Positions 15,167 to 54,660 of a DNA stretch of 64,000 bases are shown here, one piece after another. Position 1 is the stretch's first letter, and every line of letters starts with the position of its first letter. Location of the stretch: NCBI GenBank assembly GCA_021324755.1, contig JAJPIL010000006.1, positions 49,109 to 113,108 on the forward strand, in the 5' to 3' direction. Origin of the DNA: Pseudomonadota bacterium. Lineage in GTDB: Bacteria > Desulfobacterota > Binatia > Binatales > Binataceae. The position numbers and the translations under genes are program-made. The notes below the pieces were generated by a model. That model had not been told where the DNA came from and made no database searches. It saw nothing but the letters and a program-made list of their open reading frames with translations.

Positions 15167-15288
15167 TGATCAAGTTTTCATCATGGCGAAAGGTTTTAGG
15201 CGCGCAAACTAACAGGCCGCCTTTTGCTTGTCTTTGGCTTTGTCATATCATCGAGTCGAAAGTAAACCGTACCGGTGTGGGGTCGAGC

Positions 15289-25781: not shown

Positions 25782-27200
25782 TTGATGAGCACAGAGAAAG
25801 CCGGGGCGCAGAGAGCGCCAGTTTTTAGAAACGCACTGGATGTCTGCAAGGACGATGGTCTGAAGGCTCGACCTGTCCGCGCACAAGAGCTCTGCTGCGC
25901 GCTTTTGTCGGGACGAGGCGAGGCTTCAGGAGAAGCGCTGGCGTGCGAACTTATCAGGGTTTACCAAACGATGAAGCCCGCGCAACGAGTTGCGTTTTTC
26001 GAAATGTTGGCGCGAGATTTTGCCCCAGACCCTAGAAGAGTCAGTCAAGCGGCCAAGGATTATTTCGAAAAGCCCTGTCACGAAACCTTCTTTAAGCTTT
26101 GGAGCACAGTCGAGCCACCACGCCAGGAGTTGTTCAGGAGAATTAACGTGGCCCCAGGCGGCACGCAGGCGCTGATTGATCTGCGCGCTGATCTGATTAA
26201 CCTTCTGTCGCAACGACCTCACCTAGCTGAGGTGGACTTCGACCTAAAGCATTTGTTCGCCTCATGGTTCAATCGCGGGTTTCTTCGGCTGGAGCGGATC
26301 GACTGGCGGACTCCAGCGGAAATCTTAGAAAAGCTTATCCGTTATGAGGCGGTGCACGAAATTAACGGCTGGACAGACCTAAGACGCCGGCTTGCCGAAG
26401 ACCGACGATGTTTCGCGTTTTTCCATCCTGCTCTTCCTGGCGAACCGCTCATCTTCGTCGAAGTTGCGCTTACTCGCGGCGTGGCTCGGACCCTGCAGCC
26501 GCTGCTCGATCCCGAAGCGCCGATTTTGCCTTCCGAGCAGGCGGACACAGCGATTTTCTACTCCATAAGCAACTGCCTTGCTGGCCTGCGCGGTATTTCG
26601 TTCGGCAGTTTTCTGATAAAGCAGGTGATGGCTGAACTTAAGGCTGAACTACGCGGCGTTCGACATTATCTTACACTTTCGCCCCTGCCTGGGTTTGCCG
26701 CAGCTTTAAGGGAACGGGCCGATCCGCACGGCTTTACCCATCGACGCCTGCTTCGGCTGCTCAGTGACTACGCTTCGCAGATTAGGCATCGCACCGGGAT
26801 GCGGAACGTGGTGGAAGGATTCGATCGCTTGCTGGCAGACCCCTTGGCTAACAAACGCGTTTTGGCTGCGCCACTTGCGCGTTTAGCGCTTGCCTATTTG
26901 ACGCAGGTCAAACGCGATGGGCAGATAGCTGATCCGGTCGCCTCCTTCCATCTGGCCAATGGCGCCCGACTGGAGCGAATTAACCCGTTTGCGAACACAA
27001 AGCTTTATGGTTTGCAGAGTTCGTTCGGCTTGATGGTAAACTACCGGTACGTTTCGTCGGAACTGGAGCAAAATCATGAAGCCTTCGTAACCGAAGGCGT
27101 TATCGCGCTCTCTCCATGGCTCGAGCGCGAGTACCGTAAAATAGCCATGATGTGGGGCGGCGACGAAAATCTTAGCTCGCTAGCGAGGGTAAAGCTATGA
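25782..27200 (+). CDS. matA: Malonyl-CoA decarboxylase
   Basis: 472 aa; MCD N-terminal helical domain and C-terminal GNAT-like catalytic region (FYSISNCLAGLRGISFGSFLIKQV). Confidence 0.8.
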   Translation: MMSTEKAGAQRAPVFRNALDVCKDDGLKARPVRAQELCCALLSGRGEASGEALACELIRVYQTMKPAQRVAFFEMLARDFAPDPRRVSQAAKDYFEKPCHETFFKLWSTVEPPRQELFRRINVAPGGTQALIDLRADLINLLSQRPHLAEVDFDLKHLFASWFNRGFLRLERIDWRTPAEILEKLIRYEAVHEINGWTDLRRRLAEDRRCFAFFHPALPGEPLIFVEVALTRGVARTLQPLLDPEAPILPSEQADTAIFYSISNCLAGLRGISFGSFLIKQVMAELKAELRGVRHYLTLSPLPGFAAALRERADPHGFTHRRLLRLLSDYASQIRHRTGMRNVVEGFDRLLADPLANKRVLAAPLARLALAYLTQVKRDGQIADPVASFHLANGARLERINPFANTKLYGLQSSFGLMVNYRYVSSELEQNHEAFVTEGVIALSPWLEREYRKIAMMWGGDENLSSLARVKL

Positions 27201-28557: not shown

Positions 28558-31065
28558 CTAACGAAGCCACAGAATTAGCGAAGCTTCCAGCGGCACGCGG
28601 ACGCTCGGATAAAATGGGATCACACGCGGCGTGTAATGTTCGGCAGGTCTCGTTGTTTTTACGCGCGCCTCGTAGACAAGCGGCCCACTATTTGGGCTTT
28701 GCTTTGCGGTTTGGGTCATAGTTATTCGTTCAGGTTCTTTGTCTGGAAGCGGTTCAGCGTACAATTCGACGCGTAACCAATCCGGGCTAAGCTTACCGGG
28801 GTCGAGATTCACCTTAAAGAGATGGCCGTCGGTCAGTGGTTCGACCCTCAGGTCCCAAAGACGCAAGCTGGGCCAGCCGGAGGCGAGCGCCTTGTACCAT
28901 TGTTCGATCGCGACAGCATCTTCGATCGTACGTTGGCGATAGGCGCGTAGCGCCTCCGTATAGTACTTCTCCACGTACTCTCGCACCATTCGATTGGCCG
29001 AAAAGCGATGGGTGAGCTGAGCCATGCTCGCCCGGATGCGCCGCACCCAATCCTGAGGAATACCTTGGGCGTCGCGTCGATAAAACGTCGGCACCACTTC
29101 GCTTTCTAGAAGATCGTACAACGCTTCCGCCTCAATCATGTCCCAGGAGGGATCGTCGCCGTGTTCGCGTCCGTCGCCGATCGCCCAGCCGACGTCCGGC
29201 GTGTATGCTTCCGCCCACCATCCATCGAGCTCCGACAAATTCAGCCCGCCGTTCACCAAAAGCTTCATGCCGCTGGTGCCGCAAGCCTCCCACGGACGGC
29301 GCGGCGTGTTGATCCACAGGTCCACTCCTTGGACAAGCTCGGCGGCCAACGCCATGTCGTAATCTTCGACGAACACGGCCCGGTCACGTACCTCGGGCCG
29401 GCGCATAAATTCGTTCCATTCGCGTATCATCTCCTTGCCCGCGGCATCCTGCGGATGGGCTTTGCCGGCGATAATAAGCTGAACCGGCCAGCGGCGGCTC
29501 GTCAGCAGGCGCGACAGACGCTCCGGGTCGTGAAGCAACAGATTGGGGCGTTTGTATTCAGTGAATCGGCGAGCGAAGCCCAAAGTAAGGCTGTCGTAGT
29601 CGAGCGGAAGTCTGAAAGCGTCAGGGGCGTCGGCGTTGCGCAGCCGCCGGGTCTTCATCAGCCGGCGGCGAACGGCGTCAACCAATGCTCTCCTAGCTTT
29701 ATTACGAAACGCCCATATGAGGTCGCTCGGGATACAGGCGATTTTTTCCTCAATGGTTTCGACGTCCCCCAGCCACCGATCCTTGCCGCAACTTTGCGTC
29801 CATAGCTCGTCGGCAATCGTGGAATGCCACGACGGTACATGGATCCCGTTCGTTACGTGCCCCACGGGAACCTCGCTGAGCGGCCAGCGTGGAAAAACCG
29901 GCGCGAAGATCCGCCGGCTGACGGCTCGATGGAGCGCACTGACGCCATTGACGGCACCGCATCCCCGAAGCGCGAGGTAAGCCATGTTGAAAGGCTCGCT
30001 GCGGTCGCCAGGGTTGGCTCGGCCGAGCGCTAGCAGTTCGTCCACGCTGATTCGCAGCATCTCGGCGAGAATCTCAAAGCAGGGCGCGAACATGTGGGGC
30101 TCGAAGCGATCGAATCCGGCTGGTACGGGCGTGTGGGTGGTGAAAATGTTTCCCACGCGGGTGCGTCTGAGCGCCACGTGAAACGGCTGGCCGGTTCGCT
30201 CCATAAAATCCCGCGCTCGCTCCAGCACGGCGAAAGCCGCGTGTCCCTCGTTGAGATGGCAAATTTCGCATTCGATACCCAAGCTCCGAAGCACGCGCCA
30301 CCCACCGATTCCAAGCGCTATTTCTTGTTGGAGCCGCATCAACGAACCGCCCCCGTAAAGCTCTGAGGTAATAGCCCGATCGGCTGGCGTATTGAGCGGA
30401 TCGTTGGCGTCGAGAAGAAAGAGCGTTGTCCGCCCGACTTTAACCTGCCAGCAACGCAGATAAAGAGTACGGCCTGGAAGGGTAATTTCCACGCGCAACC
30501 ATTCCCCATCCGGGGTTTGCACCGGCAAAATGGGCAGCATCGCTGGGTTGTTGTAAGGAAAGAACTCGAGTTGCTCGCCACGAGAGCCGATGACCTGGCG
30601 GAAGTACCCTTGCTGATAGAGAAGACCGATACCGTAAACTGGCAGGCCGAGGTCGCTTGCGACCTTGAGAAAGTCCCCGGCCAAGATGCCCAGACCGCCC
30701 GAGTATATCGGTAGAGCTTCGCTGAGCCCGAACTCCATGCAGAAAAAAGCGATGCCGTTGAGCTTAAGCTCGCCATAATTTCGCTCGAACCAGGTAGACT
30801 GGCGAAAATATTGATCGCGCATCTGGTGCAAGCGCTTGATTTCCGCGACGAACGCCGTGTCTTGCGCCAGCGCCTGAAGGCGTTTTTGCGAGACATCCCG
30901 CAAAAGTAGCCAAGGATTTCCAGTCGCCTCCCAAAGCTCGGGATCGAGCTTTTGCCACAAGACGTCCGCCTCGCGGTTCCAGCTCCATCGCATGTCTAGC
31001 GCCATCTCGATGAGAGGTTCGAATTCGGGCGGAAGCTTACGCGGGAGATAGTGATCGTAATTCAC
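28558..31065 (-). CDS. glgP: Alpha-glucan phosphorylase (GT35, bacterial GlgP-type with N-terminal DUF3417-like region)
   Basis: 835 aa; SGGLGILAGDFLKVASDLGLPVYGIGLLY motif and pyridoxal-phosphate Lys region. Confidence 0.85.
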   Translation of the reverse strand: MNYDHYLPRKLPPEFEPLIEMALDMRWSWNREADVLWQKLDPELWEATGNPWLLLRDVSQKRLQALAQDTAFVAEIKRLHQMRDQYFRQSTWFERNYGELKLNGIAFFCMEFGLSEALPIYSGGLGILAGDFLKVASDLGLPVYGIGLLYQQGYFRQVIGSRGEQLEFFPYNNPAMLPILPVQTPDGEWLRVEITLPGRTLYLRCWQVKVGRTTLFLLDANDPLNTPADRAITSELYGGGSLMRLQQEIALGIGGWRVLRSLGIECEICHLNEGHAAFAVLERARDFMERTGQPFHVALRRTRVGNIFTTHTPVPAGFDRFEPHMFAPCFEILAEMLRISVDELLALGRANPGDRSEPFNMAYLALRGCGAVNGVSALHRAVSRRIFAPVFPRWPLSEVPVGHVTNGIHVPSWHSTIADELWTQSCGKDRWLGDVETIEEKIACIPSDLIWAFRNKARRALVDAVRRRLMKTRRLRNADAPDAFRLPLDYDSLTLGFARRFTEYKRPNLLLHDPERLSRLLTSRRWPVQLIIAGKAHPQDAAGKEMIREWNEFMRRPEVRDRAVFVEDYDMALAAELVQGVDLWINTPRRPWEACGTSGMKLLVNGGLNLSELDGWWAEAYTPDVGWAIGDGREHGDDPSWDMIEAEALYDLLESEVVPTFYRRDAQGIPQDWVRRIRASMAQLTHRFSANRMVREYVEKYYTEALRAYRQRTIEDAVAIEQWYKALASGWPSLRLWDLRVEPLTDGHLFKVNLDPGKLSPDWLRVELYAEPLPDKEPERITMTQTAKQSPNSGPLVYEARVKTTRPAEHYTPRVIPFYPSVRVPLEASLILWLR

Positions 31066-31200
31066 TGACGGTGTATCCCCTTTTTGGGTTTAGCAAGTCG
31101 CCTCTGATTAATTCTGGTAAACCAATTTCGTGATCTGCAAGAGAGATGTTAGCGTCGAATTATTTTGGACCTTTCTTTGGAAGGGCAGAAGGTCCGCCTT

Positions 31201-33357
31201 CTAGCCCGAATGGCCGGGCCTTTCGAGCACGACAAGGGAGCGCGGGACGAGTTCGAACACTTGGCCGTTAAATACTGGCTCTCTGCCCGAGTCTGGGGCG
31301 TCATAAGGCGCGGGCGCCCCGGTATTAATGACTATTCGCCAGGGTTGCGCACCGGCCGGCGGCGGCACCGTAAATTGAACAGAATGTTCTTCTGCGTTGA
31401 ACATTAGGTATAAGTCTCCTCTTGCGGATTCCAGGTCTCTTATGAGGCATGCGAGGGCTCGCTCTGGACCGTTCCATTGGGGGTAATTTCCGTTTGCGTC
31501 AAACCAAGAAACTTCCGCTTCGGTATAAAATCGTTCCCGGCGCAAAACTCCGTGGTCGTTGCGAAAAGCTATCATTTTGCGCACGAAGCGGAACAGCTCG
31601 CGGTTGCGCTCGAGCAGCCTCCAGTCGTACCAGGAGGTCTCGTTGTCCTGGCAGTAAGCGTTATTGTTGCCGCGCTGAGTGCGCCCGAATTCGTCTCCTC
31701 CAAGTATCATGGGCACGCCGCGCGACAACAGCAGCGTGGCGATCATGTTTTTCATCTGGCGCAGGCGGACGGCGTTGATCGAGGGGTCGTCGGTTTCGCC
31801 TTCGACGCCATAGTTGCAACTGAAGTTGACATCGCTACCGTCTCGGTTGCCCTCGCCGTTTGCCTCATTATGTTTTCGTTCGTAGCTGACGAGGTCGCGC
31901 AAAGTAAACCCGTCGTGGCAAGTGATAAAGTTGATGCTGTTCAGCGGCGCTCGGCCAGAGTGTTGATAGATATCGGCGCTGCCGCACAAGCGACTGGCGA
32001 ACAAACCGAGCATTCCGCGGTCGCCTCGCCAGAAACGGCGTACCTCGTCGCGGTAGCGTCCGTTCCATTCGGACCAATGAAGCCCCGGGAAGCATCCTAC
32101 CATGTAAGCGCCGCCAGCATCCCATGCCTCCGCGATCAATTTGACGCCGCGCAGGATGGGATCTTCAGCGATGCGCTCGAGAAGTGGCGCGTTAGGCGTG
32201 ATGTTGCCCGACTCGTCGCGCCCGAGGATCGCGGCAAGGTCGAACCTGAAGCCGTCGACATGCATCTCGGTCACCCAATGGCGTAGACAATCAAGGATAA
32301 GTTCCCGTACGACGGGATGATTGCAATTGAGCGTGTTGCCGCAACCAGAGAAGTTTTTGTAGCGACGCTTGTCGTCCTCGAGCAGGTAGTAGACCGGATT
32401 CTCGATGCCACGGAAGCTGAGCGTGGGCCCGGTTTCGTCGCCTTCCGCAGTGTGATTGAACACGACGTCGAGAATCACTTCGATGTCCGCGGCGTGAAGT
32501 GCGCGCACCATTTCTTTGAACTCGGCGACTTGTTGGCCGCGCCCTCGGCTTGCGTAGGTTTCCTTCGGGGCGAAAAAGCCGAGCGGGTTGTAGCCCCAGT
32601 AATTGCGCAGCCGCGAGCCATCCAATGGGTTTACCCGCTTGATTTCGTTCTCGTTGAACTCATGGACCGGTAATAGCTCGATTGCTGTAATACCGAGCTC
32701 CTTGAAGTAGGGAATTTTCTCGATAAGTCCTCGGTACGTGCCCGGATACCGGACGCCGGATGAAGGATGGATCGTCAACCCCCGAACGTGGGTTTCGTAG
32801 ATTATAGTTCGCGACCAGGGATGGGCTGGTAAACGGTCGTCCTGCCAGTCGAAATCGCGAACTGCCACGATCCCTTTTGCGACATAAGGCGCATTGTCTT
32901 CGGTCGAAAAGGAAAGATCTTTTAGCGGCGAGTCGGGATCGTAGCCGCGGGCGCGATCGAAGTCGTATTCGCTTACGCCGGTCAGGGCGGTTGCGTAAGG
33001 ATCGACAAGCACTTTAAAGCGATTGAAGCGAAGACCATCGCGCGGGCGGTAGGGTCCATCGACTCGATAAGCGTAGCACGAACCTGGACCGATCCCCATC
33101 ACGCGTACGTGCCAAATTTCCCCTGTCCGATTGAAAACAGGATCGAGCTTTATTGTTAGGGAAGGATACGGATCGTCTGGGGAATCGTACAAAAGCAGCT
33201 CGACCGAGGTCGCGTGGCGGCTAAAAAGCGCAAAGTTAACGCCGCCTGGAACGACCCATGCTCCGAGCGGCAGGGGACTTCCGCTCTTGATTGTGAGGCT
33301 TTTCTGAGAGACAGCGCTGGTAGGTGAAGATTCGGTGTCGGGATGGCTTTCGCTCAC
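31201..33357 (-). CDS. glgX: Glycogen debranching enzyme GlgX (isoamylase, GH13)
   Basis: 718 aa; CBM48 N-domain (GVNFALFSRHATSVELLLYD), GH13 catalytic motifs (GFRFDLA, AEAWD). Confidence 0.85.
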   Translation of the reverse strand: MSESHPDTESSPTSAVSQKSLTIKSGSPLPLGAWVVPGGVNFALFSRHATSVELLLYDSPDDPYPSLTIKLDPVFNRTGEIWHVRVMGIGPGSCYAYRVDGPYRPRDGLRFNRFKVLVDPYATALTGVSEYDFDRARGYDPDSPLKDLSFSTEDNAPYVAKGIVAVRDFDWQDDRLPAHPWSRTIIYETHVRGLTIHPSSGVRYPGTYRGLIEKIPYFKELGITAIELLPVHEFNENEIKRVNPLDGSRLRNYWGYNPLGFFAPKETYASRGRGQQVAEFKEMVRALHAADIEVILDVVFNHTAEGDETGPTLSFRGIENPVYYLLEDDKRRYKNFSGCGNTLNCNHPVVRELILDCLRHWVTEMHVDGFRFDLAAILGRDESGNITPNAPLLERIAEDPILRGVKLIAEAWDAGGAYMVGCFPGLHWSEWNGRYRDEVRRFWRGDRGMLGLFASRLCGSADIYQHSGRAPLNSINFITCHDGFTLRDLVSYERKHNEANGEGNRDGSDVNFSCNYGVEGETDDPSINAVRLRQMKNMIATLLLSRGVPMILGGDEFGRTQRGNNNAYCQDNETSWYDWRLLERNRELFRFVRKMIAFRNDHGVLRRERFYTEAEVSWFDANGNYPQWNGPERALACLIRDLESARGDLYLMFNAEEHSVQFTVPPPAGAQPWRIVINTGAPAPYDAPDSGREPVFNGQVFELVPRSLVVLERPGHSG

Positions 33358-33376
33358 GGGGGTTGAACCGATTTCG

Positions 33377-34585
33377 TCAGCGAGCTACCAGACGCGCTGC
33401 AGCTTGCGCCATATATAGCTCTTCGTCCAAGGTAACAACGTAAGCTTTTATCGGTGAATCTGGTCGGCTAATCATCGCCTCGCGGCCGTTGGCAGAGCGA
33501 TTTGCCTGTGCGTCAAGAATTAAACCAAGTGTCTCAAGGCCACTGCAAATTTTTGCCCGTACCTCGTCGGCGTGCTCGCCGATTCCCCCGCCGAAGACGA
33601 CGGCATCGACACGCCCCAGTACGGCCATCTAGGCACCAAGGTACTTGCGAGCACGATAAGCGAACGCCTCGATCGCCTGCGCCGCGGCTCCCAACGGGTC
33701 GCGGCTCGCCGCCGCAAGAACCTCGCGTATGTCGTCTGAAACGTTCGACAGTCCCAGAAGGCCCGACTCGTGATTCAACATTCGGTCAATCTCTTGCACT
33801 GTCATTCCCTCGCTGGCCAGATACAGGAGAAGACCGGGATCGACGTCACCTGCCCGGGTTCCCATCATCAGCCCTTCGAGCGGCGTAAGTCCCATCGAGG
33901 TGTCCACCGAGCGGCCTGCCGCTATCGCCGTGACCGAGCATCCACCACCGAGCTGCATCGTGATAAGGTTAAGCTCCTCCTTAGGCTTTTTCATCAGCGT
34001 GGCGGTTCGTTCGAGCATGTAAGCGTGGCCGATACCGTGAAAGCCGAAGCGGCGGATCCCATACTTCTCGGACACTCGGCGCGGGATGGCATAAAGACGC
34101 GCATGGATGGGAATCGTATGATGAAATGCTGTATCTGGCACCACTACTGGAATTGCGTTTGGAAGCTCTTGTCGAACCGCCTCCAACGTTGCAAGCGCGG
34201 CCGGATTGTGCAGAGGCGCAAACTTGCTCGCCTCTCGCAGGGCGCGGATCGTGTCGTCGTCTGCTAAAGTAGCGTCTTTAATTTTCTCGCCGCCGTGAAC
34301 AACCCGATGTGCTACGACATCGACGTCAACCCTTCTCAGAACCGAGCGGAGCCATTGTAGCGCGTCCAACGCCGCGCCTTGATGGTCGGTTATAGAAAGC
34401 TTTTGTCTCAGTTCTTGGCCGCCTGCTGTTTTCAAAACGCGCTGACACTGGGGGTGGCCGAGGTCTTCGTAATGTCCCAGCGCGATAGTTGTTCGCTCAA
34501 AGTCGACCTGACGACTCAGCTCCAGAAGCTCAAACTTTAACGAAGAGCTGCCGCAGTTAAAGACAAGGGTTTTTAGCGGGCGCAT
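33377..34585 (-). pseudogene. ackA: Acetate kinase interrupted by an in-frame TAG (amber) codon at 33629-33631
   Basis: N-terminal part (MRPLKTLVFNCGSSSLKFELL ... ARKYLGA) ends at TAG. The next codon is ATG and continues in the same frame (MAVLGRVDAVVFGGGIGE...), which is the C-terminus of acetate kinase. The stop replaces the conserved Tyr of the KYIGAY motif. The ORF track shows a long spurious N-terminal extension, and the real start is the ATG at about 34585. Confidence 0.7.
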
Positions 34586-34593
34586 CGTTCTGC

Positions 34594-37326
34594 TTACAAG
34601 TCTAGGGGGACTTCCAGCAGTGGCGGCTTGAGTCGCATTCTTCCGTCGATAACTATCGCTCCTTTTCCGGAGGGCAACACCTTGACTGGGTTTAAATCCA
34701 TCTCGGTCATCTCCGGGACAACGTCTATCAAAGCCGAGACGCGCTGAATAACAGCAACCAGGGCTTGCCTGTCGGCCGCGGGAGTTCCTCGGTAACCGTC
34801 GAGCAGTGGTGCGCTGCGCAAATGGGTTATCATCTCGGCGGCGTCGATGTCGCTTACCGGGTGAAGCCGGAATGAGACATCTTTCAGCAGTTCGACGAAC
34901 ACGCCGCCCAGGCCACATACTACCAGGGGGCCAAAGGTCGGATCTGTCGTTACGCCTACCAGCGCCTCGATTCCCTGGTCGATCTGTCGTTGTAGAAGCA
35001 CGCCAGTCAGCGGTTTGCCAATCGCAGCCATGCGCTCTTGCAGTGTTTTGACCGCTTGTGCAACGTCTTGCTCGCAGACAAGACCCATTATGACGCCACC
35101 GACGTCGCTTTTATGCACCAACCCGGGTGCGATCGCCTTGGCCACCAGAGGATACCCCAAGCGTCTGGCAACTTCAGGCGCTTCCTCGGGCAAAGTTTGC
35201 TCCGCTTCGACGCATGCGATACCGGCGGCACGCAAAATGGTAGCAAGGTCTCGCGCTTCAACCCAAACCGGCTCGCTTGCGTCTTTCAAGACTCGTTCGA
35301 CTACAGCGCGCACAACCTCGCGCGCAAAGCGCGAAAGGCTCATGATTTGACCCCTGGGGCGCTTACGCCAGCAAGCGTACCGCCATGCGCTAGCCAGCGC
35401 CAAGGCGGCGCCTTCGGGAAAGTTGTAAACTGGCAGACGTCCCCGAGGACCGCTGCTCAGTGCTTCGGGTGCTCCTGCGGTGGAAAGGAATACCGTGATC
35501 ACCGGTTTCTCAGAGGGTACCTTGCCGGCACCGGCAGCTATTCCGACCGCGATCTGCTCCGGATTGGTTACCATCGGGGGTACGTACAGCACTACCAGGG
35601 CATCGACCTCCGGGTCGTTACCAACTAACGCGATGGCTCGCTCGTAGTCCTCGGCGGAGGCCGAGGCTGTCATGTCGATCGGATTGGCAAGTCCAGAGCG
35701 GGGCGGCAAAAAGGCGCGCAAAGCCTCAAGCGTCGGCTCGGATAGCGTGGGAAGCACAAGCCCGTGGGCTTCACAAGCGTCGGCAAGCAAAATCCCTGGA
35801 CCACCCGCGTTAGTAACGACTCCGATTTTTGGCCCCGGCGGTATCGGCTGCGAGGAAAGCATCGAAACCGCGTCGAAGAGCCCCTCGAGCGTGTCGGTGC
35901 GAATCACTCCGGCCTGCTCGAACAACGCGTCCACTGCGACGTCGAGGTTGGCCAGTGCGGCCGAATGGCTTGATGCGGCTCGACTGCCAGCAGCCGACCG
36001 TCCCGACTTCACCGCGACCACAGGCTTTCGACGCGCAACTTCGGGCGCAAGCCGCGCAAATTTGCGGGGGTTACCTACGCTTTCCAGGTAAAGCGCGACC
36101 ACCGACGTTTGCGGATCATCCATCCAATACGCCAGCAAATCGTTGTTGGATAAGTCGGCGCGATTGCCAGCCGAGATGAAAGTCGAAAAGCCGAGCTGAT
36201 GGGCCCGCGCATAGTCCAAAATAGCTATGCCCAGCGCTCCGCTCTGGGTGAACATCCCGATATTTCCTGGTAATGGTTGCACGGGGGCAAAGGTCGCGTT
36301 GAGGCGAATTTCTTGATCGGTGTTGATGATGCCCATGCAATTGGGACCCACCAGGCGCATGCCGCTTGCCCTTGCCAAACTGGCGATTCGGCGCTCAGCT
36401 TCGGCACCCTCAGCCGAGACTTCGGCGAAGCCTGCGGTCAACACGACGACTCCCTTGACGCCCACTTTGCCGCACTCGACGATTACGCGCTCTACCGCTT
36501 CCGCAGGAACGGCAATCAGGGCTAGATCAACTTCGCCCGGAACCTCACCAATGGAGCGGTAGCATTTGAGACCTTGGATCTCTTGGGCATTGGGATTGAT
36601 CGGATAGATCGGTCCGCGAAAGCCGTGGCGGACAAGGTTCGCAACTAACGCGCCGCCGATTTTACTCTCGTTGCGTGAAGCTCCTATAACCGCAACTGAC
36701 TTCGGGCGCAGAAGCCGCGCGACGCTTCGCGCGGCAGCGATGCGCTCGCGCGTCTCGACCGCCTCGATCGATTGCGGAGTCTCGCTGGTTGAAATCCACA
36801 AATGGATAACGCCGGACCGGCTGGAACGCCGTACCTTGAAGCCGCTTTTGGCGAACACTTCAAGCATACGGTTGTTCTCGCCTAGAACGTCGGCTTCAAA
36901 TTCGCTAATCCCGTTGGCCCGAGCGATTCGCGCAAGATGGGTGAGCAGCAGAGTGCCGATTCCCCGGCCTTGATACTCGTCGAGCACAGCGAAGGCAACT
37001 TCGGCACGCTTGGGGTCGCCTCCTCGAATGTAACGCCCGACGCCAATGAATTCCTCGCGGTCGCCTTTTTTCAAGGTTGCTACGAGGCCGACGTGGTTTA
37101 CGAAGTCGAGATTTGTAAAACGGGTCAACTCCTCTTCGGTCAGCTCCTTCTTGGGCCCGAGGAAGCGGTAGTAGATCGACTGGGGGCTAAGCCGTTTGAA
37201 ATGCTCGTAAAGTTTGGCTTTGTCTTCTGGCTGAATCGCGCGGATGTGGATCGAGCTTCCGTCGCGCAAAAGCTCTTCCACCGCGTAGGCGCGCAAATCG
37301 GCCGCTGACGTTAGCTGCTCTGTCAC
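34594..37326 (-). CDS. GNAT acetyltransferase fused to ADP-forming acetyl-CoA synthetase (NDP-forming acyl-CoA synthetase alpha+beta); Pat-like protein lysine acetyltransferase architecture with N-terminal GNAT
   Basis: 910 aa; N-terminal GNAT (QGRGIGTLLL), then CoA-binding/succinyl-CoA-synthetase-alpha-like domain (VAVIGASRN...GPNCMGI), then ATP-grasp (PLVAKAIAPGLVHKSDVGGV). Confidence 0.75.
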   Translation of the reverse strand: MTEQLTSAADLRAYAVEELLRDGSSIHIRAIQPEDKAKLYEHFKRLSPQSIYYRFLGPKKELTEEELTRFTNLDFVNHVGLVATLKKGDREEFIGVGRYIRGGDPKRAEVAFAVLDEYQGRGIGTLLLTHLARIARANGISEFEADVLGENNRMLEVFAKSGFKVRRSSRSGVIHLWISTSETPQSIEAVETRERIAAARSVARLLRPKSVAVIGASRNESKIGGALVANLVRHGFRGPIYPINPNAQEIQGLKCYRSIGEVPGEVDLALIAVPAEAVERVIVECGKVGVKGVVVLTAGFAEVSAEGAEAERRIASLARASGMRLVGPNCMGIINTDQEIRLNATFAPVQPLPGNIGMFTQSGALGIAILDYARAHQLGFSTFISAGNRADLSNNDLLAYWMDDPQTSVVALYLESVGNPRKFARLAPEVARRKPVVAVKSGRSAAGSRAASSHSAALANLDVAVDALFEQAGVIRTDTLEGLFDAVSMLSSQPIPPGPKIGVVTNAGGPGILLADACEAHGLVLPTLSEPTLEALRAFLPPRSGLANPIDMTASASAEDYERAIALVGNDPEVDALVVLYVPPMVTNPEQIAVGIAAGAGKVPSEKPVITVFLSTAGAPEALSSGPRGRLPVYNFPEGAALALASAWRYACWRKRPRGQIMSLSRFAREVVRAVVERVLKDASEPVWVEARDLATILRAAGIACVEAEQTLPEEAPEVARRLGYPLVAKAIAPGLVHKSDVGGVIMGLVCEQDVAQAVKTLQERMAAIGKPLTGVLLQRQIDQGIEALVGVTTDPTFGPLVVCGLGGVFVELLKDVSFRLHPVSDIDAAEMITHLRSAPLLDGYRGTPAADRQALVAVIQRVSALIDVVPEMTEMDLNPVKVLPSGKGAIVIDGRMRLKPPLLEVPLDL

Positions 37327-37757
37327 CTCTATGCTACTCCGCTGCTACCAGAGGTCTTTTCCCCAGTTAGCTCGGCGAAACGTTGTGCTAACCGATTATA
37401 CCATTTTGCTATTGCGTGATAGTGTAAAAAACTTCGCAAGTTAGGGAATGCGAACTGAGTAGTGTGAACTGCCGTGATTCAAAAGAACGTCGTTTTTTGC
37501 GCGCCATGAATGCAATGTAAATGCGATGCGGACCCTGAGCGTTGAGCGATGGCGACGCGGTGCCAGTGCAGCGGTATTCGGTGGGAAACAAAGAAAGAGG
37601 AAGTGGCGTGTCGATCGTCGTCACACAAAGCCGAGCTTTGCCCGTGATGTCGCCATCGCCTGGGTTATTGCGGTCCGCGCTTCCAACTCGAAACTGCTGA
37701 AAGCAGACGTCCGAGACGTCGAACGCGTGAAGCCTGCGAGCACGGGCCGGAATTGCT

Positions 37758-38933
37758 TCATATTCCTAGCGCCTTGAGCCCGGGCAATTCGCGCCCTTCG
37801 AGAAATTCGAGTGTGGCTCCGCCTCCGGTTGAAATGTGCGAGAATTTGTGCGCCCACGGCTGGTTTTTGACGGCCGCGGCCGTGTCACCGCCTCCCAGGA
37901 CGCTGAAAACGCCAGGATTGTTAGCCAAGGCTTCACCGAATCTGAGCGTGCCTTGTGCAAAAGCGGGAATCTCGAAAAAGCCCAGTGGACCGTTCCAAAC
38001 TACGGTCTTAACGCCTTTGATTCGTTGGACGAACTTCTCGACCGACCGCGGCCCGATGTCGAGCGCCATCTTGTCGGCCGGAATAATCGCTACCGTCTCG
38101 ACCCCGGCGTCGGCGCTGGGTTGGTAGGCTACTACGTGGTCTTCGGGCAGGACGAACTCTACGTGATGGCGTCGAGCTTCGTTCATAAGCTCTCGCGCCA
38201 AATCGAGCTTGTCGATCTCCACACGCGACTTTCCAACCTCGACTCCCTGCGCTCGCAAAAACGTGTAAGCCATCGCGCCGCCAACCAGCAAAGCATCAAC
38301 CCTGCTCATCAGGTTTCGGATCACGCCTATCTTGTCGGACACTTTGGCGCCGCCCAACACCGCGACGTACGGCCGTGCGGGATTGTCAAGCAACGCACGT
38401 AGCGCCTCTACCTCGCGCATCATCAGCAGGCCCGGCGCCCGTTCAGGCAGAAACTCGGTAACGCCCACGGTAGACGCGTGCGCGCGATGGGCCGTGCCAA
38501 AAGCGTCGTTGACGTAGATTTGTTTGCCAGCGGCTAGGGCGCGAGAAAATTCCCGGTCGTTAGCTTCTTCCCCGGGATGGAAGCGAAGATTTTCGAGCAG
38601 AAGCGTCTGGCCTGGCTCGAGCTCCGCGGTCATCCGCTCGACCTCGGGACCGACACAGTCCGGAGCGAATTTCACTTCCGAGCCAAGCGCTCGTGCGAGG
38701 TATTCGGCGACCGGCGCCAGGCTAAGTTCGGGGGCGTGCCGACCTTTCGGCCGCCCCAGATGCGAGCAGGCAACCACGGCCCCAGACTGAGAGAGAATAT
38801 AGCGTATTGTGTCGAGGCTTGCGTCGATTCGGCTGGTGTCCGATATTCGACCATCGTTCAGTGGAACGTTGAAGTCAACCCGTAACAGAACCTTTTTATT
38901 CCTCAAATCCAAATCTTGAAGTCGCGTAGCCAT
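37758..38933 (-). CDS. pgk: Phosphoglycerate kinase
   Basis: LDLRNKKVLLRVDFNVP N-terminus and conserved PGK motifs throughout; ATG at 38933 with GGGAGA upstream (ORF track start 38957 is a TTG). Confidence 0.9.
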   Translation of the reverse strand: MATRLQDLDLRNKKVLLRVDFNVPLNDGRISDTSRIDASLDTIRYILSQSGAVVACSHLGRPKGRHAPELSLAPVAEYLARALGSEVKFAPDCVGPEVERMTAELEPGQTLLLENLRFHPGEEANDREFSRALAAGKQIYVNDAFGTAHRAHASTVGVTEFLPERAPGLLMMREVEALRALLDNPARPYVAVLGGAKVSDKIGVIRNLMSRVDALLVGGAMAYTFLRAQGVEVGKSRVEIDKLDLARELMNEARRHHVEFVLPEDHVVAYQPSADAGVETVAIIPADKMALDIGPRSVEKFVQRIKGVKTVVWNGPLGFFEIPAFAQGTLRFGEALANNPGVFSVLGGGDTAAAVKNQPWAHKFSHISTGGGATLEFLEGRELPGLKALGI

Positions 38934-39151
38934 CCTCCAAATTTCTCCCGCTAGCAAAGTTCCGAAAAGCTAACGACCAAGGTCTTTTGGAAATTTTATT
39001 TGTCGCGCTCAAGCTTCGGCAGAATTCAAGCGTCGAAGTGGTAATGGCAAATCTTCGAAACCTGGACCGTAGTTGTTTTTAACACATAAAAGGCTTACAT
39101 CCTTTTTCAGTTCTGCACGACTTTCTGCGAGCCTCCAGCCGAACAATACCG

Positions 39152-39595
39152 TCAAGCGGCGGATTTGCTGGTGATCGTTTCGGGTCGGACTGTGAGGACG
39201 GGACAGGGTGCTTCTCGAATCACGCGCTCCGCCACACTGCCTAAAAAGAAATGAGCGAGACCCGAACGGCCGTGCGTCGACATGACAATTAGATCTGGCA
39301 TCAGGTTCTTTGCGGTATCCAGTATTCCCTGAGCAGGATCTCCCACGCATACGATCAGTTCGCGCTTAAACCCTTGTGCAAGTCGTTGAGCAATGGCCTC
39401 GAGCCGGGTTCTCGCTTCTTGCTCAGCGGCTTTGTATGGTTCGAGCGCCCACTCCATAGGAGCCAGTACTACGGGCACCACGTGAAGCAAAATAAGTGTT
39501 CCGCTCTCTTTTGCAACCAGTTTTTCCGCCAGCTTAAGCGCGGCTACGGAACCTTCCTCAAAGGCTACCGGACAAAGAATTTTGTTCCACTCCAT
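39152..39595 (-). CDS. Universal stress protein (UspA family)
   Basis: About 148 aa from internal ATG; ATP-binding motif region MSTHGRSGLAHFFLGSVAERV. Confidence 0.8.
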   Translation of the reverse strand: MEWNKILCPVAFEEGSVAALKLAEKLVAKESGTLILLHVVPVVLAPMEWALEPYKAAEQEARTRLEAIAQRLAQGFKRELIVCVGDPAQGILDTAKNLMPDLIVMSTHGRSGLAHFFLGSVAERVIREAPCPVLTVRPETITSKSAA

Positions 39596-39939
39596 CGACT
39601 GTTCCCCGTCGGCTCGATGATACTTCCGCGCCGGAAAAGAAAGCGTTGTTTTGGCGCCGCTGAGTAAGTTATTGTCTCTTGCTAGAGGTAGCAGTGGCAA
39701 CATTTTGAGGTTAGATTCGGCATCCAATAAGGTCGTTCAGGACCGCGGCTAGACGTGGCCGACGCGATTGCGCGCCGCTTTTCTCGCGCCCCGAGCAGCG
39801 AAAGCTTTCCAGTTATACGGCGTGGTTTGTCAGAAATCAGGCCAAGCGCGGCTTGCTTTGCCCAAGAATTCGAGTTTCTGACGAGAAACTTTGAATCGCT
39901 CAAGAAAGAGTAGCGACGAATCGCAGGGTCTTTTCGTTG

Positions 39940-39967
39940 GGTGCGTGTGTTTGTGCGTGCGTGCGAG
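39940..39967. repeat. Alternating purine-pyrimidine (GT/GC)n tract GGGTGCGTGTGTTTGTGCGTGCGTGCGAG in usp/glgA divergent intergenic region
   Basis: Read directly from sequence. Confidence 0.5.
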
Positions 39968-40151
39968 TAGCCAGCGCGTTAGGATTCTTAGGGTTGGACT
40001 GATGCGGCGAGAAGTTAGCTAGAGCCGTGCGGGGGTTGCAGCAATAAAACCTGCGACAATCAGACGCTTTATCGATTGGAAAGCCGCGAGCCGGTACATC
40101 TTGTAGACCCCACGTGTTAGTCCGCTTTCTTCAAAGAGGTCAAGGTAGGGC

Positions 40152-41624
40152 ATGTACATTGTGATGGTCGCCACCGAGTGCGCTCCGGTGGCAGCTAACG
40201 GCGGCCTTGCTGACGTAGTTTTTGGCTTAAGCCGCGAGCTTGAAATTCGAGGCAATGCGGTCGAAATCATCCTGCCGAAGTACGATGTCTTGCGGTACGA
40301 CCACATCTGGGGTCTGACGCTTGCATATGGCGATCTGTGGGTGCCATGGTACGGCGGAGCAATAAAGTGCGCGGTGTGGTTTGGATTCGTTCACGGTCGC
40401 AAGTGCTATTTTATCGAGCCCTATTCGCAGGACAACTTCTTTAACCGGGGCACTTTGTACGGATGCCCGGACGATGCTATCCGGTTCGCGTTTTTCAGTA
40501 AGGCAGCCCTCGAGTTTATGCTAAAGGCAAATAAACGTCCCGACGTAATTCATTGCCATGATTGGCATACCGGCTTGGTGCCTGTCTTGCTGTTCGAGAT
40601 GTACAAGTTCTGTGGCATGCCGAATCAGCGGGTCTGCTACACCGTGCACAACTTTCGCCATCAGGGTGTAGCCGGACAGGAGGTTCTTTGGGCGACGGGC
40701 CTTGGTCGGCCCGAGTATTTTATGTCTCCTGATCGTTTGGCCGATCCTGCGAACCCGACTCGCGTCAATTTTCTCAAGGCTGGTATCGTGTACTCTAATT
40801 TTGTCACCACGGTGTCCGACCGCTACGCTTGGGAGGTTCGCCATACGGATCTAGGATGTGGCTTGGGGCATACGCTTTACCTCCACCGCAACAAGTTCGG
40901 TGGAATTCGCAACGGCGTCGACTACGACGTCTGGAACCCTGAGATCGACCGGCTTATTCCCCATCGCTACGGTATCGACACCGTTCAAAACAAGTATCTC
41001 AACAAAGAAGCTCTGCGCGATCGCTTGTGGTTGCGCAAGGATTTCAAGCCGATCGTAGCGTACATAGGGCGACTCGACGCTCAGAAAGGAGCGCACCTGA
41101 TTCGACACGCCCTTTGGTACAGTCTTGCCAACGGCGCGCAATTCATCTGCCTTGGCTTTGCTCCCGATCCGGCTATAGGCGGCGAGTTCTTGCGGCTGAA
41201 ACAGCAGCTGAACGACAATCCCGACTGCCACCTCGAGTTGCGATTCGACGAGGCGCTTGCGCATCTTATTTATGCGGGCGCGGACCTAATCATTGTTCCT
41301 AGCAATTTCGAGCCATGCGGTTTGGTCCAGATGATTGCGCTTAAGTATGGAACCGTGCCCGTGGTACGCGCGGTGGGAGGATTGGCTGATACGGTTTTTG
41401 ATCGCGACTATTCGGACCGTCCAATGGAGGAGCGCAACGGGTACGTTTTTTATCAAGGCGACCCGCCCGCTATCGAGTCTGCGCTAAAACGGGCCTTGGG
41501 CCTGTGGTTTCACTATCCGGAGGAATTTCGAGCGTTGATGCTCAACGGGATGCGGTGTAATTACTCGTGGGAGTTGCCAGCGCAGCATTATTTGAACGTG
41601 TACGAGTACATAAGGCACAAATAG
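40152..41624 (+). CDS. glgA: Glycogen synthase (GT5, ADP-glucose type)
   Basis: N-terminal ECAPVAANGGLADVV (KxGGL-like) motif; 490 aa. Confidence 0.85.
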   Translation: MYIVMVATECAPVAANGGLADVVFGLSRELEIRGNAVEIILPKYDVLRYDHIWGLTLAYGDLWVPWYGGAIKCAVWFGFVHGRKCYFIEPYSQDNFFNRGTLYGCPDDAIRFAFFSKAALEFMLKANKRPDVIHCHDWHTGLVPVLLFEMYKFCGMPNQRVCYTVHNFRHQGVAGQEVLWATGLGRPEYFMSPDRLADPANPTRVNFLKAGIVYSNFVTTVSDRYAWEVRHTDLGCGLGHTLYLHRNKFGGIRNGVDYDVWNPEIDRLIPHRYGIDTVQNKYLNKEALRDRLWLRKDFKPIVAYIGRLDAQKGAHLIRHALWYSLANGAQFICLGFAPDPAIGGEFLRLKQQLNDNPDCHLELRFDEALAHLIYAGADLIIVPSNFEPCGLVQMIALKYGTVPVVRAVGGLADTVFDRDYSDRPMEERNGYVFYQGDPPAIESALKRALGLWFHYPEEFRALMLNGMRCNYSWELPAQHYLNVYEYIRHK

Positions 41625-41710
41625 TCAATCTGAAGGCCGCCGAGTGAAGGTGACTTGCAATCTAGCCAAGTGGATGGTTGTGGGATGGCAAAAGCGAGGG
41701 ATGTAGTGAG

Positions 41711-43174
41711 ATGAGCGAACTGCCAGAATGCATTGACGGGCTGCCAAATATCTGCGGGCAAGAGCAGTTAATCGAGCAGGCGATCGCGGAAAGCCGCGGT
41801 CAACCGGTCTTTCTACCCACCAGCAGAATAGACTTTTCGAGGATCCGCGCGGCGGCGGCTATAGCGCTGCACATGCATCAGCCACTAATCCCGGCTGGAG
41901 GTCCAGATCTTCGTACTGCCGCAGTTATCAGCAATTTGAAGTACATGATGGACAACCAGCACATAGGCGACAATCACAACGCGCCCGTTTTTCACTGGTG
42001 TTACAAGCGGATGGGCGAGTTCATTCCGCAGCTTGTACGCGAGGGGAAGGAGCCGCGCGTGATGCTGGATTACTCGGGCACGCTTTTGTACGGCCTGCGA
42101 GCGATGGGGCTCGACGACGTGTTCGAGAGTTTAAAGACAATCACGCTCAACCCCGAATATCAGCGAACGGTGGAATGGCTGGGATGCGCCTGGGGTCACC
42201 CGGTTGCGCCGTCAACTCCGACGCAGGACTACCGCCTACACGTGAAAGCCTGGCAGCACCATTTTGCGGCGATTTTTGGTCTTGACGCGCTAAAGCGCGT
42301 GCGAGGCTTTTCACCTGCCGAAATGGCTCTGCCGAACCATCCTGACGTAGCCTACGAGTTTGTCAAAACGCTCAAGGACTGCGGCTACCAATGGGTTTTG
42401 GTGCAGGAACACACCGTGGAGAGGCCGGAAACCGGCGGCGGCCCCGAGCGCAAACATATTCCCCATCGTCTGCGCTGTCGCAACTCACAAGGTGAGGAAG
42501 TTACCATCATCGCCATCATCAAGACCCAAGGCAGCGATACCAAGCTTGTTGGTCAAATGCAGCCCTACTACGAGGCCAAGGGATTGTCGCGGTGGGAGCT
42601 GGCGGGCAAGCTGGTGCCTCCGCTTGTGACGCAAATCGCTGACGGGGAAAACGGCGGCGTGATGATGAACGAGTTTCCACCGAAGTATATCGAGGTTGTG
42701 CGGGAATGCTCCCATTCCGATGTCCCCTTGATGAACGTGACCGAGTATCTCGAGCATCTGAAAGCCCTTGGCATCGACGAAAAAGATTTTCCCGAGCTAC
42801 AGCCAGTGTTGCAAAAGCAAATCTGGGAGCGCTTTAAGCCCGGCGACGGGCCACAGCGCCTTGCCGAGGTGATCGAGCAGATCAGGCGCGAGGACTCACG
42901 GTTTACGATGGAGGGAGGGAGCTGGACGAACAATATTTCCTGGGTACGTGGCTATGCTGATGTAATCGGGCCGATGGAGAAGGTGAGCTCGCTTTTTCAC
43001 GAAAAAGTTACAAAAAAAGGCTTCCCAACGAACGAATATCGTTATCGCAACGCGCTATTTCATCTTTTGACCAGCCAGACAAGTTGTTATCGCTACTGGG
43101 GACAGGGAATTTGGACGGAATACGGTCGCGAGATCTGCAGACGCGCCGAGGAAATTATCCTTCACGACTTTTAA
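41711..43174 (+). CDS. Glycoside hydrolase family 57 protein (alpha-glucan-active; branching enzyme/amylase-like)
   Basis: IALHMHQP motif (GH57 conserved region I) near N-terminus; located between glgA and glgB; start at ATG 41711 with GAGGGA RBS (ORF track 41678). Confidence 0.65.
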   Translation: MSELPECIDGLPNICGQEQLIEQAIAESRGQPVFLPTSRIDFSRIRAAAAIALHMHQPLIPAGGPDLRTAAVISNLKYMMDNQHIGDNHNAPVFHWCYKRMGEFIPQLVREGKEPRVMLDYSGTLLYGLRAMGLDDVFESLKTITLNPEYQRTVEWLGCAWGHPVAPSTPTQDYRLHVKAWQHHFAAIFGLDALKRVRGFSPAEMALPNHPDVAYEFVKTLKDCGYQWVLVQEHTVERPETGGGPERKHIPHRLRCRNSQGEEVTIIAIIKTQGSDTKLVGQMQPYYEAKGLSRWELAGKLVPPLVTQIADGENGGVMMNEFPPKYIEVVRECSHSDVPLMNVTEYLEHLKALGIDEKDFPELQPVLQKQIWERFKPGDGPQRLAEVIEQIRREDSRFTMEGGSWTNNISWVRGYADVIGPMEKVSSLFHEKVTKKGFPTNEYRYRNALFHLLTSQTSCYRYWGQGIWTEYGREICRRAEEIILHDF

Positions 43175-43237
43175 GGCTTGAAGACGGTGTACTGGTGCGC
43201 CGGATCATTCAATAGAGCTCACGGCAGATCTGCGAGA

Positions 43238-45502
43238 CTACTTCAATGCGGCAGTGTCCTCTGGGGGAACCGAGAACCACAGTACCGTCAGCGGAGGCAA
43301 AGTAAGCGATACCGAGTAAGGATACCCGTGATGGGAAACTGGCTCTGCCTCGACCGCGCCGGCGTTGCCGTTGTTGCTGCCACCGTAAACCGCGCTGTTA
43401 GTATTGAGCACTTCCCTGTAGGTTCCTAGTTTCGGGACGCCGACTCTATAACCTTCGCGCAGCGCGCCGGAGAAGTTGCAGACGCAAAGCAGGCGTCTGC
43501 CGCTCGAGGGAGCTATTCTCAAAAAGGCGATTACATTTGAGTCCGCGTCGTCAGGTTCAACCCATTTAAAGCCCTCCGGTTCGACGTCAGCTTCCCATAA
43601 CGCAGGTTCTGACTTGTAGATCGCGTTGAGGTCGCGAACCAACGATTGGAGGCCACGGTGATCCGGCTCATCGAGCAAGTGCCAATCCAGACTCTCGTTG
43701 TAATTCCATTCTCGCCATTGGCCGAATTCGCCCCCCATAAAAAGGAGCTTTTTCCCAGGTCGCGCCCACATGTAGCCGTACAACGCGCGCAGGTTTGCGA
43801 ATTGGCGCTCGCGGTCCCCAGGCATTTTGGCCAGCAGAGAGCGCTTGCCGTGCACCACCTCGTCATGCGAGAGCGGGAGGATAAAGTTTTCGCTCCAAGC
43901 GTAGAGAAAGCCAAACGTAAGATTTCGGTGGTGGTAGCGCCGGTAAATCGGATCCTTTGAAAAATATTCCAGCGTATCGTGCATCCAGCCCATGTCCCAC
44001 TTGAAACCAAAACCCAAGCCGCCGAGGTAAGTGGGGCGACTCACTCCGGGCCACGCCGTGGACTCTTCGGCTATCGTCATGATACCGGGGTAGCGAGCGT
44101 ACACCTGCTCGTTGAACCGTTTCAAGAAGGCGATCGCCTCCAAATTTTCGCGGCCCCCATACTCGTTCGGTATCCATTCGCCTTCGCGCCGAGCGTAATC
44201 GAGGTAAAGCATCGAGGCGACCGCATCGACCCGAAGGCCGTCGGCGTGATACTCCGAGAACCATTTGTGAGCGCTCGAGGTAAGAAAAGTGACTACTTCG
44301 TGGCGACCGTAGTTGAAAATGTACGTTCCCCATTGGGGATGCTGTCCTTTGCGAGGGTCGAGATGCTCGTAAAGAGCAGTCCCGTCGAACCAACCGAGGC
44401 AGAATGAGTCTTTAGGAAAATGGCCGGGAACCCAGTCGAGAATTACTCCGATACCGCGGCGATGCAGGTAATCGACAAAATAACGAAAGTCGTCTGGCGC
44501 TCCGTATCGAGCAGTGGGGGCGAAGTAACCGCTAACCTGATATCCCCAGGAGCCGTCAAATGGATGTTCCATAATGGGCATGAGCTCGACGTGGGTAAAG
44601 CCCATGTAGGTGAGATAATCGGCAAGCTCGTGCGCCATTTCGCGGTAGGTTAGAGGACGCTCGCCTTTTTCGCCTGCCCGGCGCCAAGAGCCGAAGTGTA
44701 TCTCGTATATGGAGATCGGGCTGCGTAAAGGGTCGCTCTTGGCTCGCTTTGCCATCCAGTCCTGGTCCGAGAAGGTGTATTTGGAGCGGTAGACGATCGA
44801 AGCGGTCGCTGGCGGTTTTTCCATGGCGCAGGCGTAGGGGTCGGTTTTGAGCGCGACCGTATTGTCCGCGGTCTGAATTTCGTATTTATATAGGGCGCCT
44901 TCACCCACGCCGGGAATGAACAATTCCCACACGCCTGAGCTTCCTAGCACGCGCATCGGATAAACCCTTCCGTCCCATCGGTTGAAGTCGCCGACGACGC
45001 TTACTCCCTTGGCATTTGGCGCCCATACCGCAAAACTAGTTCCTTCCACACCGTCAAGCACTCGGACATGGGCTCCGAACTTTCTGAAGGCTTCTTGATG
45101 TTTGCCTTCATTGAACAGATAAAGGTCCATTTCGCCCAACGTGGGAGGAAAGCTATAGGGGTCGCGCGGGACGATCACTTTGCCATCGGGGTATTCGATC
45201 TCGAACCGGTAGGGCAGAACGTCGCGCCAATCGGGCAACGCGATCTCGAAAAGGCCTTGGGGATTCAATAACTTCATCTCGCGCGGTGCCATGCCCGGGG
45301 CACTGATAAAAACGCGGACCGCACCCGGACGCATCGTGCGCACTACGATTCCGTTCTCTGTGCGGTGTGGTCCCAAAATCGCGTGGGGGTTGGTGTGTCT
45401 CAAGGCTAGCAACAATTTTATCTGATTCTCGAGGTCAGACGACTTCGTGACTTGGACGGCGGACGCTGACTTTGTGCAGTGATTCCTATTTGTGTCCGGC
45501 AT
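43238..45502 (-). CDS. glgB: 1,4-alpha-glucan branching enzyme (GH13)
   Basis: 754 aa; CBM48 and GH13_9 catalytic motifs ([24 protein letters not shown]...). Confidence 0.9.
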
Positions 45503-45651
45503 ATTGCGCTTTCACTGTCGTGTTCGGGTTTTTGCTGAAAGGGAGAGAGCGCGCGCGCATGGCAGCCTGCCATTAAGTCGCTCGCACGCTCCGTAAGATT
45601 AGGCTAATCTTCGAATGGTGCTCTAACTGCTCGGGATTTAGGAACAAGCCC

Positions 45652-54477: not shown

Positions 54478-54499
54478 AAATTTATAGAAATTTATAGAT
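54478..54499. repeat. Tandem direct repeat AAATTTATAGA x2 flanked by two copies of GAACAAGCGTAG and a CTTGTTC-agc-GAACAAG hairpin; candidate operator/promoter module for the pentose-phosphate operon
   Basis: Read directly from sequence (GAACAAGCGTAG at about 54459-54470 and 54531-54542; hairpin 54521-54537). Confidence 0.45.
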
Positions 54500-54660
54500 T
54501 CGATCCTGTGTAGGCTAGGGCTTGTTCAGCGAACAAGCGTAGACCCTCAAGACCGGAGGAATGGAGCGAGCAAGCTAGAAACCCCAGGCTCGTCGACCAG
54601 GCTGGGAATTTCACAGCGATCGGCGAGTGTCGAGTTTTCACGAGTGAGGAAGGCAAGCGT

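Follow-up and report, generated by a model that had tools for sequence, protein, structure and literature searches.

A characterised counterpart of the gene analysed here is the acetate kinase (AckA) of Methanosarcina thermophila, whose adenosine motif, Mg-ligand glutamate and C-terminal helix are reportedly needed for activity, and in which we take E384 to be the proposed Mg ligand. An acetate kinase frame that is broken by a stop codon can also be set beside translationally coupled split ORFs with abutting stop and start codons, and beside amber suppression or recoding by supF-type tRNA-Tyr suppressors or pyrrolysine. A further parallel is provided by experimentally evolved Lactobacillus plantarum, in which repeated sweeps of mutations that inactivate ackA, a premature stop among them, have been found (PMC6054917).

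In the window, i.e., the whole 64-kb stretch of DNA analysed in the present study, an ackA frame interrupted by one amber codon was identified, with the following parts:

33377..34585, minus strand: ackA (acetate/propionate-family kinase), whole frame, with 402 sense positions, 1 internal TAG and a terminal TGA
33629..34585, minus strand: N-terminal ORF, 318 codons plus TAG (public record P0001, 318 aa)
33629..33631, minus strand: amber codon TAG, codon 319, at the site of the conserved Tyr of the K-Y-[IL]-G-A-Y motif
33377..33628, minus strand: C-terminal ORF, with an ATG abutting the TAG, 83 codons plus TGA (public record P0121, 83 aa)

An acetate kinase frame interrupted at a conserved tyrosine codon

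Translation of the minus strand from 34585 to 33377 gave 402 codons without a frameshift and with codon 319 as the sole internal stop, in agreement with the first-pass annotation, which had described the frame as continuous except for this TAG (T at 33631, A at 33630 and G at 33629, followed by the ATG at 33628-33626). The ORF listing showed the gene as two pieces, with the homologous part of the first comprising 318 codons from the ATG at 34585. Family tests were performed on the conceptual read-through protein with Tyr set at codon 319, which matched Pfam Acetate_kinase PF00871 with 415.7 bits (cut-off 22; residues 6-394 on profile positions 2-392 of 392) and TIGR00016 with 403.8 bits (cut-off 293.4). 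The protein thus belongs to the family from end to end, but due to the TAG at codon 319 the gene is not one uninterrupted coding sequence of ~400 aa. An interrupted frame of 400 codons that matches its family at 415 bits cannot be put down to a chance arrangement of ORFs.

In an alignment of 120 sequences including the query, the column of codon 319 held Y in 118 of the 119 homologues and F in the remaining one, and thus a sense residue in 119 of 119. The codon corresponds to Y316 of M. thermophila AckA, located in the K-F-I-G-E-Y segment (alignment to 1TUU/1G99), as expected from the earlier assignment of the stop to the Tyr of the KYIGAY motif. In 11 relatives' loci codon 319 was TAC or TAT, with TAG in none, indicating that one third-base transversion accounts for the TAG, and the single change from TAC/TAT to TAG proposed at first reading is therefore sufficient. 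Met occupied the following column in 46 of the 119 homologues, indicating that the ATG behind the TAG is ancestral and not newly created.

Alignment with M. thermophila AckA (1TUU/1G99; residues 4-400, E 7e-94) revealed that N10, R94, D151, H183, R244 and E388 are equivalent to N7, R91, D148, H180, R241 and E384, respectively, and that GGIGE 333-337 aligns to the adenosine motif; all of these lie in columns that are invariant in a 24-sequence alignment. The N-terminal piece (318 aa) carries N10, R94, D151, H183 and R244, whereas VVFGGGIGEH, which is the adenosine motif, lies in the C-terminal piece (83 aa) together with E388 (= E384) and the terminal helix. The 83 codons 3' of the TAG, which begin with the ATG directly behind it, were indeed intact as first annotated, with all invariant residues kept, among them those of the DEE motif and of GGIGE in the adenosine motif. 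According to the AlphaFold model (mean pLDDT 79.7), the 318-aa product stops at the end of the long helix 300-317, and the codons after the TAG supply strand 328-332, which bears the adenosine motif, then strand 380-384 with the DEE motif behind it, and lastly the terminal helix (388-401). Since the 318-aa piece has neither the adenosine motif nor the proposed Mg-ligating Glu nor the C-terminal helix, it should be inactive on its own, by analogy with the M. thermophila enzyme.

Conserved gene cluster and upstream fusion gene

The gene lies in a cluster on the minus strand, together with the following neighbours:

37758..38957, minus strand: pgk (phosphoglycerate kinase), which opens the conserved cluster
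34594..37326, minus strand: GNAT + ADP-forming acyl-CoA synthetase (GNAT-ACD) fusion, 910 aa, with CoA_binding, Succ_CoA_lig, Ligase_CoA_2 and ATP-grasp_5 domains
31201..33357, minus strand: debranching enzyme of the glgX type, 718 aa, with its start 19 nt past the stop of ackA and with TAG as its own stop (orthologues of 720 and 716 aa)
28558..31065, minus strand: alpha-glucan phosphorylase-like gene (glgP), 835 aa, last gene of the cluster, ending in TAG (orthologue of 833 aa)

The order pgk, GNAT-ACD, ackA, glgX and glgP was the same in two relatives, L001 and L003. The maintenance of this order in two relatives that are ~60-75 % identical suggests a functional link of glycogen breakdown with acetate or acetyl-phosphate metabolism in this lineage. 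The cluster forms part of a glycogen-metabolism island (window 28558-47238) comprising glgP-like, glgX, ackA, GNAT-ACD fusion, pgk, Usp, glgA, GH57, glgB and alpha-amylase/TreS-like genes, with counterparts at 5860-16447 in L001 and 4310-14603 in L003, whose cluster proteins are ~60-75 % identical to those of the window.

The first-pass annotation had also stated that a redundant acetate/acetyl-CoA interconverting enzyme is encoded immediately upstream of ackA, and this claim held in part. The gene in question, with its stop 8 nt before the ackA ATG, encodes the 910-aa protein, which contains a complete ADP-forming acyl-CoA synthetase module (693 residues aligned to 8wzu, E 3e-139) with the catalytic (phospho-)His kept, as evidenced by the alignment of the His in SSHSAAL to that in MSHTGAL of 8wzu. 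The redundancy itself found less support, due to the fusion being PatA-like and scoring 513.7 against the NCBIfam acetate--CoA ligase alpha subunit, below the cut-off of 567. The best structural relatives of its N-terminal GNAT domain were 4nxy/4u5y, deposited as "Acyl-CoA synthetase" (194 aa, E 2e-31), which we take to be the GNAT domain of Streptomyces lividans PatA. The protein also matched the full-length protein acetyltransferases 9it0 and 9isq, and its arrangement is that of the Streptomyces PatA-type protein acetyltransferases. Taken from these matches, the 910-aa protein may form acetate, act as a protein acetyltransferase, or both, and its redundancy with AckA would be plausible but unproven. 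Pfam scans detected no pta gene in the 64-kb window.

Elsewhere in the window, a lutABC-like lactate-utilisation cluster (CCG domain protein, LUD-domain proteins and 4Fe-4S protein) occupies the left end (70-3081, minus strand). On the plus strand, 54661-57528 encodes a 955-aa protein with a transaldolase domain (15-372) and a phosphoglucose isomerase domain (458-671), and together with the subsequent genes tkt, zwf, opcA, pgl and glk makes up a compact pentose-phosphate cluster. Stretches without a Pfam-recognisable gene were 7726-8808, a 1.08-kb region with only a 94-aa Cys-rich ORF; 14555-15169 (minus strand) and 49125-49709 (plus strand), two ~200-aa ORFs without a family; and 53940-54660, a 0.7-kb gap before the tal-pgi gene. 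The GC content of the window is ~0.54-0.60 and its coding fraction in the gene map ~85 %, and the Binataceae MAG 3300027968_51 has been described with 2.80 Mb in 7 contigs, a GC content of 56.4 % and 84 % coding (PMC8262859). The coding fractions of the two agree, and the window would probably belong to this MAG. A low coding density was considered as a sign of many pseudogenes and rejected, as several of the gaps in the map hold plausible ORFs.

A probable recent nonsense mutation

The TAG in ackA is probably a real and recent nonsense mutation that forms the consensus of the population sampled, and the gene would then be a nascent pseudogene or loss-of-function allele. An acetate kinase gene that had been functional until then would have acquired the TAG by one recent base change, from TAC or TAT, and the bearer of this allele would be an uncultured Binataceae-like soil bacterium. 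Translation would stop after residue 318, and the gene would be inactivated within a conserved operon that is otherwise intact. Such a mutation is supported by the position of the single stop at the column with Tyr in 118/119 homologues and TAC/TAT in the relatives, by the occurrence of the same TAG in the JGI, Logan and ENA contigs described below, and by the use of TAG as a normal stop in the window, where no other gene is interrupted. However, the invariant residues kept on both sides of the TAG would also be expected of a still-functional gene, the C-terminal piece could be made by re-initiation at the ATG that abuts the TAG, and the operon position that ackA keeps in relatives ~60-75 % identical implies that the gene is normally useful.

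The age of the lesion was assessed from further damage and from constraint. No second stop or frameshift was detected in ackA, in which 3.2 % of the single-base substitutions would create a stop, so that the probability of no further stop falls with neutral divergence, to 0.15 at 5 % and to 0.02 at 10 %. The cluster was also compared gene by gene between the window and L001, the window and L003, and L001 and L003. The identity of the window to L001 / L003 was 0.73 for pgk, 0.73 for GNAT-ACD, 0.60 for ackA, 0.75 for glgX and 0.68 for glgP. Expressed as -ln(identity) of the window lineage relative to the L001-L003 distance, ackA gave ~1.74 and the four flanking genes 1.38-1.91, and by this neighbour-normalised measure no lineage acceleration of ackA was found relative to its neighbours. 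The mean identity to homologues was 0.60 after the stop and 0.53 before it (0.63 vs 0.65 for homologue pairs), revealing no extra divergence downstream of the stop compared with the upstream part. The query departed from columns conserved at >=95 % at 9 positions apart from the stop itself, against a homologue mean of 1.6; these departures were rejected as evidence of decay due to the query being an outgroup to the match set, the mostly conservative nature of the changes, and the absence of acceleration relative to the neighbours.

The lack of extra divergence, both against the neighbouring genes and past the stop, indicates that the lesion is recent or that ackA is still under selection. The further lesions and extra substitutions by which relaxed constraint would mark a pseudogene were not observed, and their absence would leave two readings only, a very young pseudogene or a gene that still functions. 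Two other features of a pseudogene were present, namely that the lesion is absent from the orthologues and reproducible across assemblies. The very recent nonsense mutation that had been listed among the initial explanations is accordingly the one that gained support, there being no second lesion, no excess divergence and no counterpart of the TAG in the relatives. We infer that a loss of AckA activity is tolerated or favoured in this population. It is a matter of speculation that a population expanding in fire-heated soil could fix such an allele by hitch-hiking; the study of the Centralia soils reported, for hot soils, a turnover of the community and small genomes, and contains nothing on ackA (bioRxiv 10.1101/276584).

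For annotation, the public 318-aa and 83-aa ORFs, both of which are domain-labelled as acetate kinase, should be read as one ackA pseudogene, and a working AckA route should not be assumed in metabolic reconstructions of this Binataceae MAG. The ackA TAG would also provide a clean case of a nonsense allele turned consensus in a natural population of a disturbed, fire-heated soil. Beyond annotation its significance is small, as events of this kind are well known.

Possible retention of function despite the stop

A functional ackA would require that UAG termination be followed by re-initiation at the adjacent AUG with reassembly of the 318-aa and 83-aa products, or that the stop be passed by low near-cognate read-through, and either would seem unlikely. 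The ATG directly behind the TAG (UAGAUG) is suited to re-initiation, and stop/start overlaps or abutments also occur elsewhere in the window, e.g., at 1621-1624, 27197-27200 and 62527-62530. However, since the ATG is ancestral (Met in 46/119), it gives no sign of selection for a restart. Likewise, a GGTG located 5 nt upstream of the ATG might be a weak ribosome-binding site, but the GGT-GCC simply codes for a conserved Gly-Ala. In favour of retained function, the break falls in the AlphaFold model at the end of helix 300-317 and before the loop and strand 328-332, and not within a strand. Both pieces retain all invariant residues and relaxed constraint was not detectable, although the intact residues are equally expected of a young pseudogene. 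Moreover, no other acetate kinase split in this way was present among the matches, the relatives all having single proteins of 396-423 aa, and no RNA structure stands out at the stop (z = -1.3). The positive support for retained function thus consists of the stop/start junction and the intact residues.

Leaky read-through by tRNA-Tyr can be considered in the light of queG (epoxyqueuosine reductase), which is encoded at window 3128-4267 on the minus strand and suggests that the tRNA-Tyr of this organism is probably queuosine-modified. Queuosine on eukaryotic tRNA-Tyr lowers the near-cognate reading of UAG, and the presence of queG therefore counts slightly against such leakage. A naturally split AckA (318 + 83 aa), or a deliberately low read-through, by which acetyl-phosphate metabolism would be reduced beside a PatA-like acetyltransferase, is distinctly improbable. 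If the two pieces were functional, they would represent a modest curiosity in relation to split ASKHA-fold kinases.

Reproducibility of the stop codon across assemblies

It is very doubtful that the TAG stems from an error in base calling, consensus building or assembly, or from a minority strain whose allele the assemblers took up, in an organism with an ordinary intact ackA. The C-terminal record P0121 is encoded on JGI 3300027968 contig Ga0209061_1000053 (396,567 bp), on a 24-kb contig that Logan re-assembled from run SRR5579875, and on a 588-bp MEGAHIT contig of ENA ERZ27279671. All three contigs contained the TAG and were identical to the window over at least 434 nt around it. The presence of the same TAG in three assemblies makes an assembly error unlikely, and the sequencing or assembly error considered in the first-pass annotation is thus disfavoured. 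The agreement of the three pipelines is to be read together with the possibility that their assemblies derive, at least partly, from the same or overlapping reads, which favours an artefact, as does the metagenomic source, in which a contig represents a population consensus. Metagenome 3300027968 derives from surface soil above the Centralia (Pennsylvania) coal-seam fire (sample Cen10), from which three Binataceae MAGs were obtained (PMC8262859). With glgX as the query, no further samples were found.

In the Logan assembly of SRR5579875, ackA is split over two contigs (the end of L014 and the start of L016) with a 30-nt overlap at window 34028-34057 (minus strand). This break points to some graph complexity within the gene and in that respect agrees with an artefact. 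However, it lies 430 nt upstream of the TAG, and the overlap comprises the codons for the universally conserved IRRFGFHGIG motif; the break thus looks like a k-mer common to another acetate kinase gene in the sample (a paralogue or one of another organism), and not like a variant at the stop. The TAG itself is due to a substitution, its surroundings are non-repetitive, and the contig on which it lies measures 396 kb and hence implies deep coverage. Furthermore, the only 100 % matches to AckA in the protein collection were P0001 and P0121, single-member clusters that are each present in NCBI, JGI, Logan and ENA. A near-identical protein across the TAG site, even partial, was searched for with query residues 257-402 and not found in the collection, where the best spanning match had 63 % identity, and the absence of such an intact allele also argues against an artefact. 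The AckA matches in genome contigs were relatives with <=61 % identity from "Deltaproteobacteria"/Binataceae MAGs.

Reading of TAG in the window

The codon-usage gene map of the 64-kb window contained 44 complete genes, which end in TAG (16), TAA (14) or TGA (14). TAG is thus the commonest stop codon, and the next two genes of the ackA operon, glgX and glgP, end in it at orthologue-like lengths. A mechanical scan of the window returned 49 same-frame pairs of long segments split by one stop; apart from ackA, all were rejected as interrupted genes, being shadow frames or separate adjacent genes according to the gene map and inspection. No other interrupted gene was found in the 64-kb window, where Pfam matches were full length for essentially all called genes. 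The same window yielded no tRNA with ARAGORN, and hence no tRNA with a CUA anticodon, no pyl genes in the Pfam scans of the called genes, and no Rfam family. The sequence around the ackA stop folded no better than shuffles (z = -1.3), and promoter and terminator counts were at or below shuffle expectation. The TAG is also not conserved at the ackA site, where all orthologues have a Tyr codon.

The hallmarks of recoding are accordingly missing from the window, in that TAG is not avoided as a stop, ackA is the only gene with an in-frame TAG, and that TAG is not conserved. The checks that had been proposed at first reading, i.e., for a TAG fixed among close relatives and, within the 64-kb window, for amber-suppressor tRNAs and other in-frame TAGs in conserved genes, were all negative. 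Programmed amber decoding, in which the ackA TAG would be read as an amino acid, be it by a suppressor tRNA such as a CUA-anticodon tRNA-Tyr, as pyrrolysine or under an altered code, is hardly credible, despite the stop falling exactly on a Tyr codon, where a supF-like tyrosine suppressor would restore the residue perfectly, and despite the A that follows the TAG, as it is opposed by the 16/44 genes ending in TAG (including glgX and glgP), by the lack of an in-frame TAG in any other window gene or any ackA orthologue, and by the lack of a tRNA, pyl gene or Rfam element within the window. In E. coli, an A in this position reportedly makes suppression more likely. As far as the 64 kb can tell, nothing favours programmed amber decoding, and the first-pass suggestion of read-through or suppression would thus not be supported.

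Comparison with known systems

With amber suppression and recoding systems (supF-type tRNA-Tyr suppressors; pyrrolysine), the present locus shares an in-frame UAG at a Tyr position in a conserved enzyme gene. It differs from them in that TAG stops are not depleted in the window, that ackA has the only in-frame TAG there, that neither a suppressor tRNA nor pyl genes occur in the 64 kb, and that the TAG is absent from the orthologues. The resemblance to translationally coupled split ORFs with abutting stop and start codons lies in a UAG-AUG junction that suits a restart and in the conserved residues present in both ackA pieces, whereas ackA is split in no relative, its ATG was pre-existing, and an association of the pieces is only hypothetical.

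In comparison with M. thermophila AckA (PDB 1G99/1TUU/1TUY), the window's gene shows full-length homology and keeps the checked catalytic residues as well as the adenosine and phosphate motifs, whereas its frame is broken at the Y316 equivalent, leaving a 318-aa product without the adenosine motif and the E384 equivalent. Unlike the L. plantarum premature-stop ackA alleles (PMC6054917), the allele in the window belongs to a natural population of uncultured soil bacteria, and its loss of activity is predicted from the sequence. Like them, it consists of one substitution that truncates an otherwise intact acetate kinase, with the allele probably in the majority or fixed and the flanking genes unaffected.
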